DNA of 24,000 nucleotides from Candidatus Pacearchaeota archaeon (GTDB taxonomy: Archaea > Nanobdellota > Nanobdellia > Pacearchaeales > UBA284), in NCBI GenBank assembly GCA_026016245.1, contig CP061211.1, forward strand, positions 134,353 to 158,352, written 5' to 3'. Made by a program: the position numbers and the translations under genes. The notes below the pieces were generated by a model, which worked only from the letters and a program-made list of their open reading frames with translations, had not been told where the DNA came from and made no database searches. Positions 3,577 through 9,169 of the stretch are shown here, piece after piece. Position 1 is the first letter of the stretch. Every line of letters begins with the position of its first letter.

Positions 3577-3602
3577 GGTTCTGTAAAGTTATCGGTTGGT
3601 AG
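3577..3602 (+). repeat. Left terminal inverted repeat (IS6-like GG terminus)
   Basis: Read directly from the sequence. Pairs with 9023-9048 in inverted orientation. Followed by the tandem AAGGTTAAAAGGTTAA at ~3605-3620. Confidence 0.6.
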
Positions 3603-3636
3603 AAAAGGTTAAAAGGTTAAACTTTCTTTAATTCTT

Positions 3637-3825
3637 ATGGCTACATTAAGCACAAGGAAATTAAATATAGCAAGACATAGGCAGGGTTGGTTTGCACACC
3701 AAGAAAGTGAAGAGAGAAAAAGAAGGTTAGAGGAACAGAAAAATAGAAAACCAGTAAGCAAAGAAGAACATAAAAGAAGGGTAGAAATGCTAAAGAAAAT
3801 TGGGTTGTTAAAAGAAAATGAGTAA
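3637..3825 (+). CDS. Hypothetical small highly charged protein (62 aa)
   Basis: ORF overlaps the next gene by 8 nt (ATGAGTAA), suggesting translational coupling. No HTH recognisable. Confidence 0.45.
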   Translation: MATLSTRKLNIARHRQGWFAHQESEERKRRLEEQKNRKPVSKEEHKRRVEMLKKIGLLKENE

Positions 3826-4453
3826 AGCCAAAGCGAAATTAAAGGGTAATACTATAATTTTACAATTACATTATTCTCAAGGTGGAACAAGAATTGCAGA
3901 TAAAGAGGGAAATCATCTTCCAAAGCCAACACAGGTAATAAATGATAAAAGATATTACATTGAATGGATGATAACTAATGATGAGATTAAGTTACTATCA
4001 AAACTTTTTAAGAAGGAAGAGGACATTACTGGTTTGATAAATTTATTACAAAAAATAAGTAAATTTGCAGAAGAAACAAAATACTCTAAGAGAACAACAT
4101 CTTTTGAGAAAAAAGAAATAGATAAATTTGAAGGTTTTAAGATATATCATTATACTGATGATTTTAATTCTTTTGAAAAGATTCTTGATTCTGATTTAAG
4201 AGTAAGATTAACCTTTAAATTAGGAGATTTTGGTGTTACGGCTCATCCTCATATGTATGTTTTAATTCCTTTTAATTTCAAATCATTAAAGATAAAAAAC
4301 ATAGAAGGCAAAGTTAATGAAAATAAGCCATTAGGAAAAGGTTGTTTTGGGGAATTAAATTTAAATGAAGAAGAACTCAAAGAAATAATCTTAACTCTTG
4401 CTCACGCTTCAAATAATCACAGAAATGCTTTAATTGAAATTCTTAAATCTTAA
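3818..4453 (+). CDS. Hypothetical protein (211 aa); candidate partner (nuclease?) of the adjacent methyltransferase
   Basis: Convergent with the MTase gene, with an 11-nt 3' overlap. Has a weak PD-(D/E)xK-like pattern (LGDFGVTA ... KNIEGKV). No family recognised. Confidence 0.55.
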   Translation: MSKAKAKLKGNTIILQLHYSQGGTRIADKEGNHLPKPTQVINDKRYYIEWMITNDEIKLLSKLFKKEEDITGLINLLQKISKFAEETKYSKRTTSFEKKEIDKFEGFKIYHYTDDFNSFEKILDSDLRVRLTFKLGDFGVTAHPHMYVLIPFNFKSLKIKNIEGKVNENKPLGKGCFGELNLNEEELKEIILTLAHASNNHRNALIEILKS

Positions 4454-5591
4454 TTTTAAAATCTAAAATATCAGATTTTTTTATTGATTTACTGCCAACT
4501 CTAATTGTAGAATTTTTAAAATGCTCTTGATTTTCATTTATCAATTTACATATTCTTTCCTTTAACTTTTTGTCTTTGTTACATTCTTCTTTAAATTCAA
4601 AGACAAAAAACATATCATTCAAAATATCTTCTTCTTTATTGATTAATCCTGTTTTCCCTACACTTACATTCCCAACTCTCACAACAGCAAGGTAATAATC
4701 AGAAACATTTTTGTCTTGTGGTATCTCTTGTCTTTCTAATATATTCGCCCCAGAAACATTATTGTTTTCATAACTCCTGTTATATTTCACTCTCCTCTCA
4801 GATAAGAATTTTGAAAGGGGTATGCCTTCTTGTTTGTTGTTTTTCTTGTATAAAAAAGATTGAGGTATTAATTCTTCTGTTGATAGTTCTTGTTTGTTTA
4901 ATATCTCTTTTACACTTTTATCATCTTCGTATAATAATATTATTTTATCTTTGTATTCTAGAATGTTTGTGAAAATAGCAAAACAGCAGGGGATTGGTTC
5001 ATCAAACCAATTTTTATCATTTTGATAAATAATAATTGTAGAAAAATTATTTATAATTTCTTTCTTAATTTCTTTGTTCTTTTTTGCTATAAAAAAAGAA
5101 ATAGGTAAAACGAAAGCGATAGAAGAATTTTTGTCCTTAAAATGTTTTATAGATTTAAGAATAAATACATTTTCCATTTGAATTTTTGGTTTTTTAATAA
5201 GAACATTTGTTAAATACTCTTCTGGCTTAATCTCCTTATTTTTATAATTATCTGAATAATAATAACTATTTTTAACATTATATTTAGTAAAGGGTGGATT
5301 TCCAATAATTAAATCAAATTTTTCTTTTAGAGGAAAAAGAAAGAAATCACAAGGGTTATTAGTTAAATCTGTGTCTATTTCACAATCCACTATATTTTTA
5401 AAATCCCTATCTTTAAGCCCTCTTACAAAATTTTTAGTGCCTGAAGATGGCTCTAAAATTCTTATATTTTTATCATACTTTTTATATTCTAATAACAAAT
5501 TTAAGACTCTCTTTACAATATTCCTTCTTGTGAAATATTGCCCCCAAACAAATTTCTTCTCTTTTTCCATATTGGGATTACGCTTTGCCAT
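4443..5591 (-). CDS. Gamma-class N6-adenine DNA methyltransferase (TaqI/Eco57I-like) with a C-terminal target-recognition region
   Basis: Motif order X-I-IV: VWGQYFTRRNIVKRVL; motif I ILEPSSGTKNF; motif IV FDLIIGNPPFTKY. The ~200-aa C-terminal region has no motif. Confidence 0.85.
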   Translation of the reverse strand: MAKRNPNMEKEKKFVWGQYFTRRNIVKRVLNLLLEYKKYDKNIRILEPSSGTKNFVRGLKDRDFKNIVDCEIDTDLTNNPCDFFLFPLKEKFDLIIGNPPFTKYNVKNSYYYSDNYKNKEIKPEEYLTNVLIKKPKIQMENVFILKSIKHFKDKNSSIAFVLPISFFIAKKNKEIKKEIINNFSTIIIYQNDKNWFDEPIPCCFAIFTNILEYKDKIILLYEDDKSVKEILNKQELSTEELIPQSFLYKKNNKQEGIPLSKFLSERRVKYNRSYENNNVSGANILERQEIPQDKNVSDYYLAVVRVGNVSVGKTGLINKEEDILNDMFFVFEFKEECNKDKKLKERICKLINENQEHFKNSTIRVGSKSIKKSDILDFKIKI

Positions 5592-5594
5592 TTT

Positions 5595-6512
5595 TTAATT
5601 CTTTTGACTTGCACAATATATCAAATCAAGCCATTTATTTTTACCAAGATTTAGATTAACCCCAGCTTCTTCAATAGGGGTTTTATTAATGCCCTGATGA
5701 ACACGAATAAAATTATAATAAACCACAAATAAAGATAATATTGCTTCTGCACTTTTCTTATCCTTAAAATTTCTCATAACTTTTATTCTTTGCCTAATTG
5801 TTCCTTGTATTCTCTCAACAATATTATTTCGTTTATCCTTATCTGCTTTTAATTTAATCCAAATTTTTTTGTCCTCTTTTCTATTTCTTGAACCCCAAAC
5901 TTTCCTAAATGCTTTATTATATGAAGGTAGAGAATCTGTAAATAGATTAATAGGCTTGTTTTCTGTTTTTAAGAAAAGTATTTTTGCAGATTGATAATCT
6001 CTTTTTTCTGAATAATGAGAAGAAACCAAAACTCTTGTTCCTTTATCAATCATATCCCAAAAATAATGCTGTTCTTTTTTACATTTAACAAAAATCTCGT
6101 CAGCATGATATTGTCCTGAAAGTTTTAAATCAAACTTTCTCTGAAAGTCTTTTAACAAGATAGCATATCTTCTTATCCAATTTAGAACAGATTGATGACT
6201 TACCCCATAATCTGAAAATTGATTAAAATGTTCTTTGATTTTTCTTAAACTTAATCCATTCATATAAAGAGAAATACATTGAGTTACAACTTCTTTTTTA
6301 TGTTTCATCTTGAAAAATCCATCATCAAGAGTAAATGTTTCAGAACAAGATTTACATTTCCATCTCTGTTTTTTTGTTGTATGATTAAATCTAAATCCCC
6401 ATTTAATTAAAGTTTTAGATTTACAGAAGGGACATGCCTTCGGCTTTATAACCGATACATTTTTATATTTCTTTGATTTATTGTTTTTGTATTTCATTAG
6501 CGTGGGATACAC
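5595..6512 (-). CDS. IS6-family DDE transposase with an N-terminal zinc finger
   Basis: CPFCKS...CKSC zinc finger. HTH region SLRKIKEHF...HQSVLNWIRRY. DDE segments YHADEIFVKCKKEQHYFWDMID, LFTDSLPSYNKAF and NNIVERIQGTIRQRIKVMRNF line up with IS26 Tnp (MDETYVKV / NTDKAPAY / NNVIECDHGKLKR, from memory). The track start at 6512 is GTG; ATG at 6497 (MKYKNN) is more likely. Confidence 0.85.
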   Translation of the reverse strand: MYPTLMKYKNNKSKKYKNVSVIKPKACPFCKSKTLIKWGFRFNHTTKKQRWKCKSCSETFTLDDGFFKMKHKKEVVTQCISLYMNGLSLRKIKEHFNQFSDYGVSHQSVLNWIRRYAILLKDFQRKFDLKLSGQYHADEIFVKCKKEQHYFWDMIDKGTRVLVSSHYSEKRDYQSAKILFLKTENKPINLFTDSLPSYNKAFRKVWGSRNRKEDKKIWIKLKADKDKRNNIVERIQGTIRQRIKVMRNFKDKKSAEAILSLFVVYYNFIRVHQGINKTPIEEAGVNLNLGKNKWLDLIYCASQKN

Positions 6513-6528
6513 AGCCCTTCGGGGCTGT
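6511..6528. promoter_or_regulatory. GC-rich perfect hairpin (7-bp stem, TTCG loop) directly 5' of the transposase start
   Basis: ACAGCCC-TTCG-GGGCTGT followed by TTTT on the plus strand. On the minus strand it sits 13 nt upstream of the ATG at 6497. It stands out against AT-rich surroundings. Confidence 0.5.
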
Positions 6529-6579
6529 TTTTATTTAATTATCTATTATTAGTTATTAACTAATTATATTAGGATATAC

Positions 6580-6810
6580 CTATTTATAAATCTTTCGGTT
6601 CAAACTGGCTAAAGAAAAAATCGTCAGAAATAGGTGTCTTTTTAGAATTAAATCTGATTCTTGCTTTAACCTTCTATCTAAAAATCTATTAAGTTTTTGA
6701 GAATAATCTTTAATATTTATGCCATGCTTTTTGTCAAATTCTTCTTTTAATAAAATTGCCTTTTCTCTTGTTTCCATAACTTTTAAATCGTGCTGATTCC
6801 AAAGATTCAT
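6580..6810 (-). CDS. Hypothetical 76-aa protein, downstream partner of the AbrB-like gene (possibly truncated)
   Basis: Its ATG overlaps the stop of the upstream 59-aa ORF (ATGA). Helical charged N-terminus and a hydrophobic, junk-like C-terminus (HLFLTIFSLASLNRKIYK). No PIN or MazF motifs. Confidence 0.45.
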   Translation of the reverse strand: MNLWNQHDLKVMETREKAILLKEEFDKKHGINIKDYSQKLNRFLDRRLKQESDLILKRHLFLTIFSLASLNRKIYK

Positions 6811-6986
6811 TTTTTCCTTTTCTCCTTTTTATTTTGTTGCCCAATTTTTTCTATAAACAGAATTTCTTCACCCTTGCTTTTTCCAACATAAACCTTATCT
6901 CCATTTTCCCACCCAGTCGCTTCTATTACGTCTTTAGGAATGGTTATTGTTGCTTGTCCATTTTTGTTTATAGTTAATCTTCCCAT
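6807..6986 (-). CDS. AbrB/SpoVT/MazE-type swapped-hairpin DNA-binding protein (59 aa), antitoxin-like; absent from the ORF track
   Basis: Hand translation: MGRLTINKNGQATITIPKDVIEATGWENGDKVYVGKSKGEEILFIEKIGQQNKKEKRKK. The GQxTIPKxxxxxxGWxxGDxV pattern is characteristic of the family. Confidence 0.7.
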   Translation of the reverse strand: MGRLTINKNGQATITIPKDVIEATGWENGDKVYVGKSKGEEILFIEKIGQQNKKEKRKK

Positions 6987-7015
6987 AACGTTATATTAAC
7001 GTTAAATTAACGTTA
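6986..7015. promoter_or_regulatory. Three TAACGTTA palindromes at exact 11-bp spacing (candidate operator) in a divergent promoter region
   Basis: TAACGTTA at 6986-6993, 6997-7004 and 7008-7015. The first abuts or overlaps the AbrB-like start codon. A TATA-like TTTATAA lies at ~7013-7020 on the minus strand. Confidence 0.6.
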
Positions 7016-7078
7016 TAAACCTTTCTATTCTCAAATTTTTCCAAAAGGTTTAAATAGCCATTTGCTAATTATATTAGT

Positions 7079-7357
7079 ATGGCTAAAGCAATTCCAAAAT
7101 GGGTGATGGAAAGGTTATCACGACTTTGGAAAAAGTATGGCGATAGTCAAGCAATAACTTTCAAACAAATAAAGGATGTTTTAAAGATGGATGACGAAAA
7201 CACAATAAGGGTATTCATAAATGAATTGAAAAAAGCAGATTGGATAGAAGTTCAATTAAGCCCAGAAAGTTCAAGAGAAAGAATCTATATTCTGAAAGAA
7301 CCAAATAAAATTATGATGGAGATTGTTTCAAATGGAAATAAAAGAAGTAAAGGTTGA
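7079..7357 (+). CDS. Small winged-helix DNA-binding protein (92 aa)
   Basis: ITFKQIKDVLKMDDENTIRVFINELKKADWIEVQ...RERIYILK fits a helix-turn-helix plus wing pattern. A TATA-like gtttaaata lies ~25 nt upstream. Confidence 0.55.
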   Translation: MAKAIPKWVMERLSRLWKKYGDSQAITFKQIKDVLKMDDENTIRVFINELKKADWIEVQLSPESSRERIYILKEPNKIMMEIVSNGNKRSKG

Positions 7358-8444
7358 ACTTGTTGATAAAAATTCAAGATTTGTCCTTAAAAAGATAATA
7401 ACTAATAAAGGGGAATTTTATAATAGGCAACTTGCAGTATCAAATTCTATTTATGCTTGTGAGAAAAAAAGATTAATTTATGGAAAAGCTTTATTTGATT
7501 CTATTTTTCAAACTTTTCATATAATGTGGAATAGTGATGAAGAAGAATGGGATTTTATAGGATTAAAAAAAGCAAAAGAACACTCAAAAAATAATGGAAG
7601 AATTTTTATCCCATACAAACAAAGAAATGAAAAGCAGTGGAATGAATTAACTTGGAAAGAAGCCGAAGAAGAATTTAAGAAATTTCAGAAAAAAGTAAAT
7701 ATTGTTCCTTATCCAATTCCTTTAAATGCTTCTTTAGAAGAATGGAGAATAAAGAAAAAGGAAGCATTAGGATTATTAGAACCAAATCAAAAACTAATTT
7801 CTATACTTTCATCTAAACATCATAATATTAATAATTTCCTTTTATTAGTAAAAGAAGAATTAAAAAATTCATTTTTTCTTGGAATTTGTTGTTATGGATT
7901 AAGCACAACTTTAGAGAAAATAAATTTATCTTTACTTAATTCAATAAATTCCTCTTTTAATGTAGAAGATAAAACTGCTTTAATAGGTTATTTTGATTAT
8001 GCGAGGATGTTAATGAACCATTCAAATATCGCTGGTTCTTTCGCTTATTCTTGTTTTGCTGGAGATTTCTTTTCAGAAAAATCTTATTTTATTCCGAGAA
8101 TGTCTAAAAAAGCAAGAGAAAAAATGTTTAATAAAAAACCAGAGGATTTTTATTTTTATGATATAAAAGAAAAAAAATTCAATAAATCCCTTCCACAATC
8201 AGGATGGTATGGTTTTGATTTAACAAGAAATTCTCTAAAAATGATTTCTGTAAATGAAGGTTTAACTGGCTATCAAACAATAAAATGGATTAATCATTTT
8301 TTACAGCAGAGAGATTTAAAATTAATTAATGAACTTCTTATTTCTAAAAAGAATGTTCTTAAATCATTAAAAAATTATACTGGTTGGAATGTTTTTTGGG
8401 ATACAATAAAACCAAACTCCCCTGAAATTCAAAGAACTTTATAG
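7332..8444 (+). CDS. Hypothetical protein (370 aa) of unknown family
   Basis: The track ORF starts at TTG 7323; the first ATG is 7332. Overlaps the wHTH gene by 26 nt. No Walker, nuclease, recombinase or radical-SAM motif recognised. Confidence 0.6.
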   Translation: MEIKEVKVELVDKNSRFVLKKIITNKGEFYNRQLAVSNSIYACEKKRLIYGKALFDSIFQTFHIMWNSDEEEWDFIGLKKAKEHSKNNGRIFIPYKQRNEKQWNELTWKEAEEEFKKFQKKVNIVPYPIPLNASLEEWRIKKKEALGLLEPNQKLISILSSKHHNINNFLLLVKEELKNSFFLGICCYGLSTTLEKINLSLLNSINSSFNVEDKTALIGYFDYARMLMNHSNIAGSFAYSCFAGDFFSEKSYFIPRMSKKAREKMFNKKPEDFYFYDIKEKKFNKSLPQSGWYGFDLTRNSLKMISVNEGLTGYQTIKWINHFLQQRDLKLINELLISKKNVLKSLKNYTGWNVFWDTIKPNSPEIQRTL

Positions 8445-8468
8445 TCACGTGACGCAAAGGATAAAACA

Positions 8469-8510
8469 TTAAGGGGTTGCTTGTTCTTTCCAAGCAAGTT
8501 AATCCCTTAA
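8469..8510. terminator. Imperfect long hairpin between convergent genes (possible bidirectional terminator)
   Basis: TTAAGGG-g-TTGCTTG-ttctttc-CAAGCAA-gttaat-CCCTTAA. Preceded by the perfect palindrome GTCACGTGAC (8444-8453) and followed by a T-rich run. Confidence 0.35.
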
Positions 8511-8618
8511 CGCCTTCTTTAAATTATTAATTCTTTCTACCTTTTAATCTTTTCTATGATTTTGGCTTTGTATATAAAGTCTGAATAAGGGCTTACTTTT
8601 TAAACAAAATTTATTTTA

Positions 8619-8963
8619 TTATTTCAAGGTTAACATTTGTGCCATTATGACAAAATTAACTTTAAAAGATAATTCTGGAAAATCTTCTTTGATTTTATTC
8701 CATATCCACATTTCTTCTTCAAAATAAGGTATAAAATTTCCTTTATCTTTCTCTTTAAATGATTCTACTTGGTCTATTCCAAAAATTTTGTGATAAGCTT
8801 CATGTATTACAATAACTTCAATTGATTCTAAAGGATTATCCCTTCCAACCCATATTTCTTCTGGTTGAAGTGAAGCCCCTTCACCATCAACAATTTTTAC
8901 AGGAAATTCAAAATTGTATTTCTCTTTAAGTTTTTTCTTAGCAGATTCTATTTCTTTTTTCAT
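8619..8963 (-). CDS. Small putative zinc metallopeptidase (HExxH), 114 aa
   Basis: VIVIHEAYHKIFG contains HExxH in a hydrophobic helix context. It is the last gene inside the right inverted repeat. Confidence 0.5.
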   Translation of the reverse strand: MKKEIESAKKKLKEKYNFEFPVKIVDGEGASLQPEEIWVGRDNPLESIEVIVIHEAYHKIFGIDQVESFKEKDKGNFIPYFEEEMWIWNKIKEDFPELSFKVNFVIMAQMLTLK

Positions 8964-9022
8964 AACAAATAAAATATTCTCTCTACATATAAATTTTTTG
9001 ATTTAAATTATATAATTAAAAT

Positions 9023-9048
9023 CCACCAACCTAAGACTTTACAGAACC
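9023..9048 (-). repeat. Right terminal inverted repeat
   Basis: Its reverse complement matches 3577-3602 at 22/26 positions. It ends 10 nt from the 3' end of tRNA-Gly. Confidence 0.6.
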
Positions 9049-9058
9049 AATAAAAACA

Positions 9059-9169
9059 TGCGCCAGCTGGGATTTGAACCCAGGTAACAACCTATCTCCA
9101 AAGTTTAGGGTTGATAAGGGATATGCCCTTATTTGGGAGGGTTGTGTCTTACCACTGGACTACTGGCGC
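9059..9169 (-). tRNA. tRNA-Gly(CCC) with a 40-nt intron after position 37
   Basis: Hand fold: acceptor GCGCCAG/CTGGCGC, A73, T arm CTGGG-TTCAAAT-CCCAG, anticodon stem CAACC/GGTTG, loop CUCCCA|A. The intron is 9094-9133 and contains the AAGGG-CATAT-CCCTT hairpin. CTCCCAAA/TTTGGAG complementarity is consistent with a bulge-helix-bulge. No encoded CCA. Confidence 0.8.

Follow-up and report, generated by a model that had tools for sequence, protein, structure and literature searches.

The window analyzed here is a stretch of 24,000 nucleotides (nt) from the genome of a Candidatus Pacearchaeota archaeon (GenBank assembly GCA_026016245.1, contig CP061211.1, positions 134,353 to 158,352, forward strand), a genome that consists of one 710-kb contig with 32% GC. 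On the minus strand of the window lie a gene for a 59-amino acid (aa) protein of the AbrB/MazE/SpoVT type, here called abrB, and a gene for a basic 76-aa protein, p76, whose start overlaps the end of abrB. Three copies of the 8-bp palindrome TAACGTTA precede abrB. The pair lies in the backbone of an IS6-type unit transposon of 5472 bp (3577–9048), together with genes for a 92-aa winged helix-turn-helix-like protein (wHTH), a 370-aa protein and an IS6-family transposase and with restriction–modification (R–M) cargo. The original prediction, made from the sequence alone, had described the two overlapping open reading frames (ORFs) as a toxin–antitoxin (TA) arrangement with an autoregulatory operator array running from the start codon to a TATA-like box; the ORFs, their overlap and the palindromes were found where it had placed them.

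The 59-aa protein is a putative member of the AbrB/MazE/SpoVT superfamily

The translation of abrB begins MGRLTINKNGQATITIPKDV... (also given as MGRLTINKNGQATITIPKDVIEATGW...). The protein matched PF04014 (Pfam MazE_antitoxin) with E = 8.9e-5 and 22.8 bits (gathering score, 24.7) and TIGR01439 (AbrB family) with E = 5e-6 and 26.1 bits (cut-off, 28.3). A large protein database held 28 close homologues of 51–59 aa, near-invariant over the first 29 residues and variable at the C-terminus, 26 of which matched PF04014 at E ≤ 0.01 (best E = 4.9e-6). The ratio of nonsynonymous to synonymous substitution (dN/dS) of abrB was 0.04–0.17, and some sources label the homologues as PrlF-type antitoxins. When solved structures were searched by sequence, the only matches of the 59-aa protein were to "addiction module antidote" chains (E = 0.17–0.96); the profile of its orthologues, termed type A here and too narrow as a profile, matched no solved structure. 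Another set of proteins found in the same slot of related elements, termed type B, scored 25.6–36.7 bits against PF04014, above the gathering score. On these E-values, although both curated cut-offs were narrowly missed, the predicted assignment of the 59-aa protein to the AbrB/MazE/SpoVT superfamily was accepted.

Three phased palindromes span the putative abrB promoter

The three palindromes are spaced by exactly 11 bp. Read on the minus strand, the region upstream of abrB is ordered AGAAAGG-TTTA-TAACGTTA-ATT-TAACGTTA-ATA-TAACGTT-ATG, in which the A of the start codon is the final A of the proximal palindrome and the TTTATAA box directly abuts the distal one. The whole genome of 710,724 bp contains the 8-mer three times, all in this array; under dinucleotide-preserving shuffling of the window, 0.09 copies were expected and none of 100 shuffles reached three. 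The hexamer AACGTT occurs 44 times in the genome, compared with 21, 15 and 67 occurrences of ATCGAT, TACGTA and TTCGAA, respectively, and 6-bp palindromes centred on CG have low counts relative to most non-CG palindromes of equal base composition. The rarity of AACGTT can therefore be ascribed to general CG depletion, since the other counted CG-centred palindromes are likewise rare, and the TAACGTTA cluster stands out all the more.

In the set of 424 ORFs with 200 aa or more that this genome encodes, TTTAWA peaked sharply at −29/−30 relative to the ATG (51 and 16 cases; background, 2–5), and no Shine–Dalgarno enrichment was seen, indicating that promoters here are archaeal and mostly leaderless. 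Given this peak, the TTTATAA box of abrB, at −33, has a plausible position for a promoter element. The array fills the stretch between this box and the start codon, where a bound protein would keep the transcription machinery out.

The promoter repeats change with the regulator

The regulator slot was compared across independent related elements (L- and G-numbered loci) and the window. Elements with a type-A AbrB gene carry TAACGTTA-like octamers at −29, −18 and −7, in the window and at the same positions in five independent relatives (L024, L031, L032, L033 and L034, the last listed as L034/35), and the TTTATAA box is kept in all of them. Both 3-nt spacers vary between these elements. Variable columns numbered 3 of 24 in the palindromes and 6 of 6 in the spacers, for which a hand-calculated hypergeometric p of ~1.4e-4 is only indicative, the sequences being related. 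Between type-A elements, the adjacent gene has reached or nearly reached saturation at synonymous sites; the window and L031 differ with pS 0.83, yet all three octamers are identical.

Where another regulator occupies the slot, other repeats occur at the same promoter position. Type-B AbrB genes are preceded by GTAGGTATTAA...TTAATACCTAC in L026, L029 and L030 and by ATATATATTAA-N7-TTAATATATAT in L021, a 53-aa non-AbrB regulator in L018 and L028 by TTATAAGTAG-N7-CTACTTATAA, and a fourth type of regulator, a 50-aa non-AbrB protein in L036, by two GTAGTGCC direct repeats. Assignment of the 53-aa regulator to the ribbon-helix-helix fold was rejected, as neither Pfam nor the Protein Data Bank (PDB) supported it, and the protein is termed "non-AbrB" only. 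The repeats are not tied to the neighbouring wHTH gene, as L018 has the closest wHTH protein (80% identity) but a different operator, nor to the cargo methylase, as type-A elements hold Eco57I-like, EcoRI-like or C5 methylases.

Because the positions are conserved and the repeats change with the type of regulator, the comparison supports the triple palindrome as the cognate operator of the 59-aa protein, as the original prediction had proposed. A cognate operator over the interval from TATA box to start codon would in turn imply autorepression. By the same comparison, regulator and operator together appear to be an exchangeable cassette, with at least four regulator types in the slot. At one further locus, L023 (4317–4610), a type-B AbrB gene is preceded by what resembles the remnant of a type-A operator (TAATGTTA, TAACGTTA); the scaffold includes a run of N, and the remnant reflects either replacement of the cassette or a chimeric assembly.

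p76 is a full-length member of a rare family, with a predicted two-helix fold

The TGA stop of abrB overlaps the ATG of p76 as ATGA (6807–6810), and this overlap is conserved in relatives. A Shine–Dalgarno-like GGAG lies within the Lys-rich 3′ end of abrB, and p76 has no TATA box at −29. Its 16 close homologues (69–100% identity) are all 73–76 aa long. When a p76 profile was run against 1.84 billion representatives, only 32 clusters were recovered, all but one of 57–90 aa; a match to a 2552-aa protein over 18 stretches was taken as spurious, caused by repetitive sequence. With a dN/dS of 0.13–0.25, p76 is under purifying selection and represents a rare family of full-length proteins.

The original prediction had regarded the hydrophobic tail of p76 as non-native and the protein as possibly truncated. 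Both suggestions failed: the tail is kept in character as a hydrophobic segment in the 73–76-aa homologues, indicating that it is native, and truncation by a downstream insertion sequence (IS) was ruled out by the same gene order, length and hydrophobic tail in all relatives. The AlphaFold2 (AF2) model of p76, with a mean predicted local distance difference test score (pLDDT) of 82.5, consists of two long helices (residues 3–29 and 36–75) in a predicted hairpin. No significant match to p76 was found in Pfam, NCBIfam, PHROGs, PADLOC, the PDB by sequence profile or the PDB by Foldseek. In the broad alignment, hydrophobic and charged positions are conserved and a single Tyr is near-invariant, and no catalytic-looking motif was seen.

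The pair is fixed in the backbone of an IS6-type unit transposon

The features of the element are listed in Table 1. Homology to the related element of G055, in a genome of a different family of the same order, begins and ends sharply at the element edges, which are marked by inverted repeats (IRs) GGTTCTGTAAAGTT... at 3577 and 9048. Related elements are 3966–5249 bp long. Taken together with the window copy, the elements of 3966–5472 bp hold 6–8 ORFs between their IRs and are not simple transposase-only IS of ~0.7–1.8 kb. Perfect 9-bp direct repeats flank L017, L021, L024 and L028, which are four independent insertions (target duplications ACGGGACAG, CTATACTCC, AACCCATAG and CTACTATAA); the window copy has no flanking 9-bp target duplication. 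The norm for target duplications in the IS6 family is 8 bp.

Table 1. Features of the transposon and of the abrB–p76 cassette, by position in the window.
Feature	Position	Strand	Basis
Left terminal inverted repeat, GGTTCTGTAAAGTTATCGGTTGGT	3577..3600	+	IR comparison
211-aa convergent ORF, candidate restriction endonuclease partner of the methylase (cargo)	3818..4453	+	Position next to the methylase
N6-adenine DNA methyltransferase (cargo)	4443..5591	-	PF02384 and PF07669 matches; PADLOC MTase_II E = 3.5e-22
IS6-family DDE transposase with N-terminal zinc finger, 300 aa from ATG at 6497	5595..6497	-	PF13610 E = 4.3e-19; NF033587 E = 4.7e-34
GC-rich hairpin ACAGCCC-CGAA-GGGCTGT between p76 stop and transposase start	6511..6528	-	Covariation
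CTAATATAATTAG-type near-palindrome just downstream of p76 stop	6560..6572	.	Partners the copy at 7065–7077
p76, basic 76-aa protein, predicted two-helix hairpin (H3–29, H36–75), hydrophobic end of C-terminal helix	6580..6810	-	AlphaFold2, homologues
59-aa AbrB/MazE/SpoVT-type DNA-binding protein, type-A regulator (abrB)	6807..6986	-	Profile matches, homologues, dN/dS
GGAG, Shine–Dalgarno-like, within Lys-rich 3′ end of abrB	6822..6825	-	11 nt upstream of p76 ATG; function inferred
Operator array, 3 × 8-bp palindrome TAACGTTA, TATA box to abrB start codon	6986-6993, 6997-7004, 7008-7015	.
TATA-like box TTTATAA of the abrB–p76 promoter, AGAAAGG before it	7013..7019	-	Begins 33 nt upstream of ATG; promoter function inferred
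Second CTAATNNNATTAG copy, between wHTH TATA box (7049–7056) and wHTH start codon (7079)	7065..7077	.
92-aa winged-helix-like protein (wHTH), divergent, conserved backbone	7079..7357	+	Weak wHTH/MarR-type Pfam matches, E~0.03
370-aa backbone protein, predicted beta/alpha barrel, remotely tRNA-guanine transglycosylase-like	7332..8444	+	AF2 and Foldseek
Right terminal inverted repeat, GGTTCTGTAAAGTCTTAGGTTGGT	9025..9048	-	IR comparison

The 370-aa and wHTH genes lie on one strand, and the regulator, p76, the IS6-family transposase and the variable R–M cargo on the other. The transposase scored 69.5 bits against PF13610 (cut-off, 27) and 117.9 bits against NF033587, below the cut-off of 125. The methyltransferase gene begins 3 nt past the transposase stop. 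The 211-aa ORF had no family match and is kept beside the methylase in G055, L024 and L037.

The wHTH gene is conserved in every related element and has a TATA box, TTTAAATA, at exactly −30. The 370-aa protein probably starts at the ATG at 7332, not at the TTG at 7323. Its AF2 model (pLDDT, 71.5) had tRNA-guanine transglycosylases (TGTs) as all of the top Foldseek matches in the PDB, which are weak (E 2.5e-4, template modelling (TM) score 0.33–0.49); a TGT zinc motif was not evident among its invariant residues, and no convincing viral match to the model was found. The family comprises only ~31 protein clusters from Nano/Pacearchaeota, all annotated as hypothetical.

Two further signals are conserved in the backbone. 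Across 10 elements, 100% of cells were paired in the hairpin between p76 and the transposase gene, and its CGAA loop is invariant; three of six pairs change on both sides, and none of 500 shuffles reached the covariation score. One G–U pair is standard only on the sense strand, and no T-run terminator follows p76 (minus strand, 6400–7200), features that would fit read-through with attenuation or protection of an mRNA end. Read on the plus strand, the same hairpin gives C(UUCG)G and then TTTTT. The second signal, CTAATNNNATTAG, has three copies in the genome, of which two (6560 and 7065) bracket the abrB–p76 cassette, the latter in the region where wHTH transcription would start. Both positions are kept in L018, L024, L026 and L028. 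CTAATNNNATTAG is a candidate site for a conserved backbone protein.

The related loci come from assemblies labelled "Nanoarchaeota archaeon" and "Candidatus Pacearchaeota archaeon", and one of them has genes for archaeal EF-2 and EF-1alpha as neighbours. Searches of viral contigs, PLSDB plasmids and GenBank phages gave no relatives, so that a plasmid or virus origin is unsupported. The most divergent relative, L036 (120–1894), has the order regulator, p71 (the homologue of p76), wHTH and 365-aa gene on one strand, and no transposase follows.

Some observations concern this copy and its genome only. A 114-aa ORF with an HEAYH (HExxH) motif (8619–8963, minus strand) lies inside the transposon; it is not in the G055 copy and had no family match. 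Rfam placed a 111-nt intron-containing tRNA, missed by ARAGORN, at 9059–9169 on the minus strand, 10 bp from the right IR. A second IS6-like transposase, 65% identical, lies elsewhere in the genome (G000:C1:652830–653720); IRs of this type could not be recognised there, and none of the p76, AbrB, wHTH and 370-aa genes lies beside it.

Discussion

The locus is probably best read as an AbrB autorepressor–operator cassette that, together with p76, is fixed in the backbone of an IS6-type unit transposon, rather than as a classic TA pair. The 59-aa repressor would bind its own array of three TAACGTTA palindromes; as the 8-bp dyads are one helical turn apart, a single face of the DNA could accommodate three dimers. 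The bound dimers would cover the interval from TATA box to start codon of an essentially leaderless archaeal promoter, and occupancy would block TBP, TFB and RNA polymerase, resulting in negative autoregulation. On the same transcript, p76 would be translationally coupled through the ATGA overlap and the internal GGAG. Because no canonical promoter or T-run terminator lies between, transcription probably continues past the conserved hairpin, which would attenuate it, and on into the genes for the IS6 transposase and the adjoining methylase; the transposase gene (tnp) has no TATA box at −29. p76 would serve as a non-enzymatic two-helix partner, functionally associated with the divergent wHTH and 370-aa genes. 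An element that enters a naive cell would be expected to show a burst of expression, followed by shut-down.

Several points weigh against this reading. The 59-aa protein of the window scores below both curated cut-offs, and neither the protein nor the profile of its orthologues reached a significant E-value against solved AbrB structures. Relative to the genomic mode, the TATA box of abrB is shifted by 3–4 nt away from the ATG. There is a TATA-like TTAAATAA at 41 nt upstream of the ATG of the transposase, so that tnp may be transcribed from a promoter of its own, outside AbrB control. Moreover, the 11 elements from which the identity correlations given below were calculated are related, not independent, and the correlations could reflect recombination breakpoints and not function.

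Known AbrB/MazE/SpoVT autorepressors (AbrB, MazE, PrlF, AbrB-type VapB and MraZ) resemble the proposed repressor in their small DNA-binding domain, which for the 59-aa protein is predicted to be of swapped-hairpin type from profile matches slightly below the curated cut-offs, and in short repeats about one helical turn apart that overlap their own promoter. Upstream of its own operon, MraZ binds three repeats with a periodicity of ~10 bp; the sites bound by MazE and VapB are palindromes in their own promoters. The system described here differs from them in its archaeal, leaderless promoter, in sites that are perfect 8-bp dyads at 11 bp, in a protein reduced to the DNA-binding domain and a short variable tail, and in that regulator and operator form an exchangeable cassette inside a transposon.

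The classic TA arrangement seen in the original prediction was borne out for the gene layout only, in which, as in type II systems, a small gene for a DNA-binding protein precedes and overlaps a second small gene of the same orientation. A TA reading would make the AbrB-type protein an antitoxin and autorepressor and p76, which is basic and has a hydrophobic C-terminal helix, a new non-enzymatic or membrane-active toxin, the two stabilising the transposon as an addiction pair. It would accommodate the ATGA overlap, the PrlF-type antitoxin labels and the swapping of the DNA-binding partner between folds, as occurs in TA families. It also has a precedent in the TA pairs that sit inside Tn3-family transposition modules (Lima-Mendez et al, 2020; PMC7157771); like these, abrB–p76 is a small, putatively autoregulated two-gene unit in a conserved backbone, immediately ahead of the transposase gene and apart from the variable cargo, and could regulate downstream transposon genes. 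The Tn3 pairs, however, contain toxins of recognised families such as ParE, PIN, Gp49 and HEPN, and p76 belongs to none of them; the present element is an archaeal IS6-type transposon in which p76 tracks other backbone genes and not its upstream partner. No toxin family, defence model, solved structure, fold match or set of conserved catalytic-type residues was found for p76. The regulators, of 48–59 aa, comprise a DNA-binding domain and, past about position 46, a variable Lys-rich tail that is absent in L033 and overlaps the GGAG ahead of p76, and at this size they leave no room for a neutralising domain. Cognate co-evolution was not seen either: in pairwise comparisons among the 11 related elements, the identity of p76 correlated with that of the 370-aa protein at r = 0.70 and with that of wHTH at 0.68, whereas the correlation was lower for the transposase (0.46) and absent for the regulator (−0.10), and one p76 lineage occurs with three unrelated types of regulator. 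At the loci examined, the regulator–p76 pair was never found outside one transposon family or apart from the wHTH and 370-aa genes. Because p76 tracks these two genes and not the regulator, and because a neutralising domain is lacking, a classic type II TA system is disfavoured, and we regard an addiction pair as unlikely.

The correlations of about 0.7 would also suit a module in the style of omega–epsilon–zeta, in which a separate small DNA-binding regulator acts on short-repeat arrays and a larger enzyme is paired with a small protein that is all-helical and lacks DNA-binding features. Here the swappable small protein on its repeat array would be the regulator, p76 the helical neutraliser or adaptor, and wHTH with the TGT-like barrel of 370 aa the effector, whether a toxin, a DNA-modifying enzyme or an accessory enzyme of transposition. 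The resemblance of the 370-aa model to an enzyme fold, the co-directional regulator, p71, wHTH and 365-aa genes of L036, and the persistence of p76 beside the wHTH and 370-aa genes even where the transposase has been replaced (L026) are consistent with such a module. On the other hand, there is no zeta-kinase homologue, the larger protein is instead a TGT-like barrel accompanied by a wHTH protein and usually divergent, the TGT similarity is weak with no evident zinc motif, and the correlation may stem from linkage alone. It is a speculative proposal, of low probability in our estimation and about as unlikely as the TA pair, that p76 is the neutraliser or adaptor of an undescribed multi-component system on DPANN IS6-type unit transposons, with the repressors as plug-in switches and with wHTH and the TGT-like protein as the active part; their activity may be, for example, DNA base exchange or modification, a toxin or dedicated cointegrate processing. 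A dedicated function of the last kind is not known from IS6 elements. The palindromes, finally, could be R–M recognition or methylation sites forming a methylation-sensitive promoter switch instead of an operator, as AACGTT-type palindromes are typical R–M targets and the methylase of the element is co-oriented with the transposase. They persist, however, across Eco57I-like, EcoRI-like and C5 methylase cargo and are not in G055 and L037, whose methylase type is that of the window, and the under-representation of AACGTT is common to other counted CG-centred palindromes. The sites thus follow the type of regulator and not of methylase, and this very improbable explanation was rejected.

The autorepressor cassette with p76, which remains the preferred reading, resides in an unusual carrier. 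Its elements share with the IS6 family (PMC7986276) an IS240/IS6-type DDE transposase with a zinc finger, IRs that begin GGTTCTGT and short target duplications, and differ from it by their 4–5.5 kb with 6–8 genes in one IR pair, a conserved four-gene accessory backbone, R–M cargo and 9-bp duplications. The members of the IS6 family listed in a review measure up to ~1.76 kb, and only ISDsp3 among them has a passenger gene, a single one (Varani et al, 2021; PMC7986276). Since that review records one such member, IS6 transposons that combine several genes and a conserved accessory module seem not to have been described before.

Taken alone, an autorepressor of AbrB type that acts on phased palindromes would be ordinary, and it is the setting that stands out: archaeal IS6-type unit transposons, which carry R–M cargo through the tiny genomes of Nano/Pacearchaeota, have in their conserved backbone a plug-in regulator–operator cassette of at least four types. 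The cassette offers a clean and testable archaeal repressor–operator pair, and with p76, wHTH and the 370-aa protein it draws attention to three orphan protein families that may act jointly. A small DNA-binding protein with an ATGA-coupled small ORF, moreover, need not always be a TA pair. The most fitting description of the module is an exchangeable cassette of autorepressor and operator that would drive p76, a conserved protein predicted to be helical, and perhaps also the transposase and the methylase, in an apparently new kind of archaeal IS6 unit transposon.

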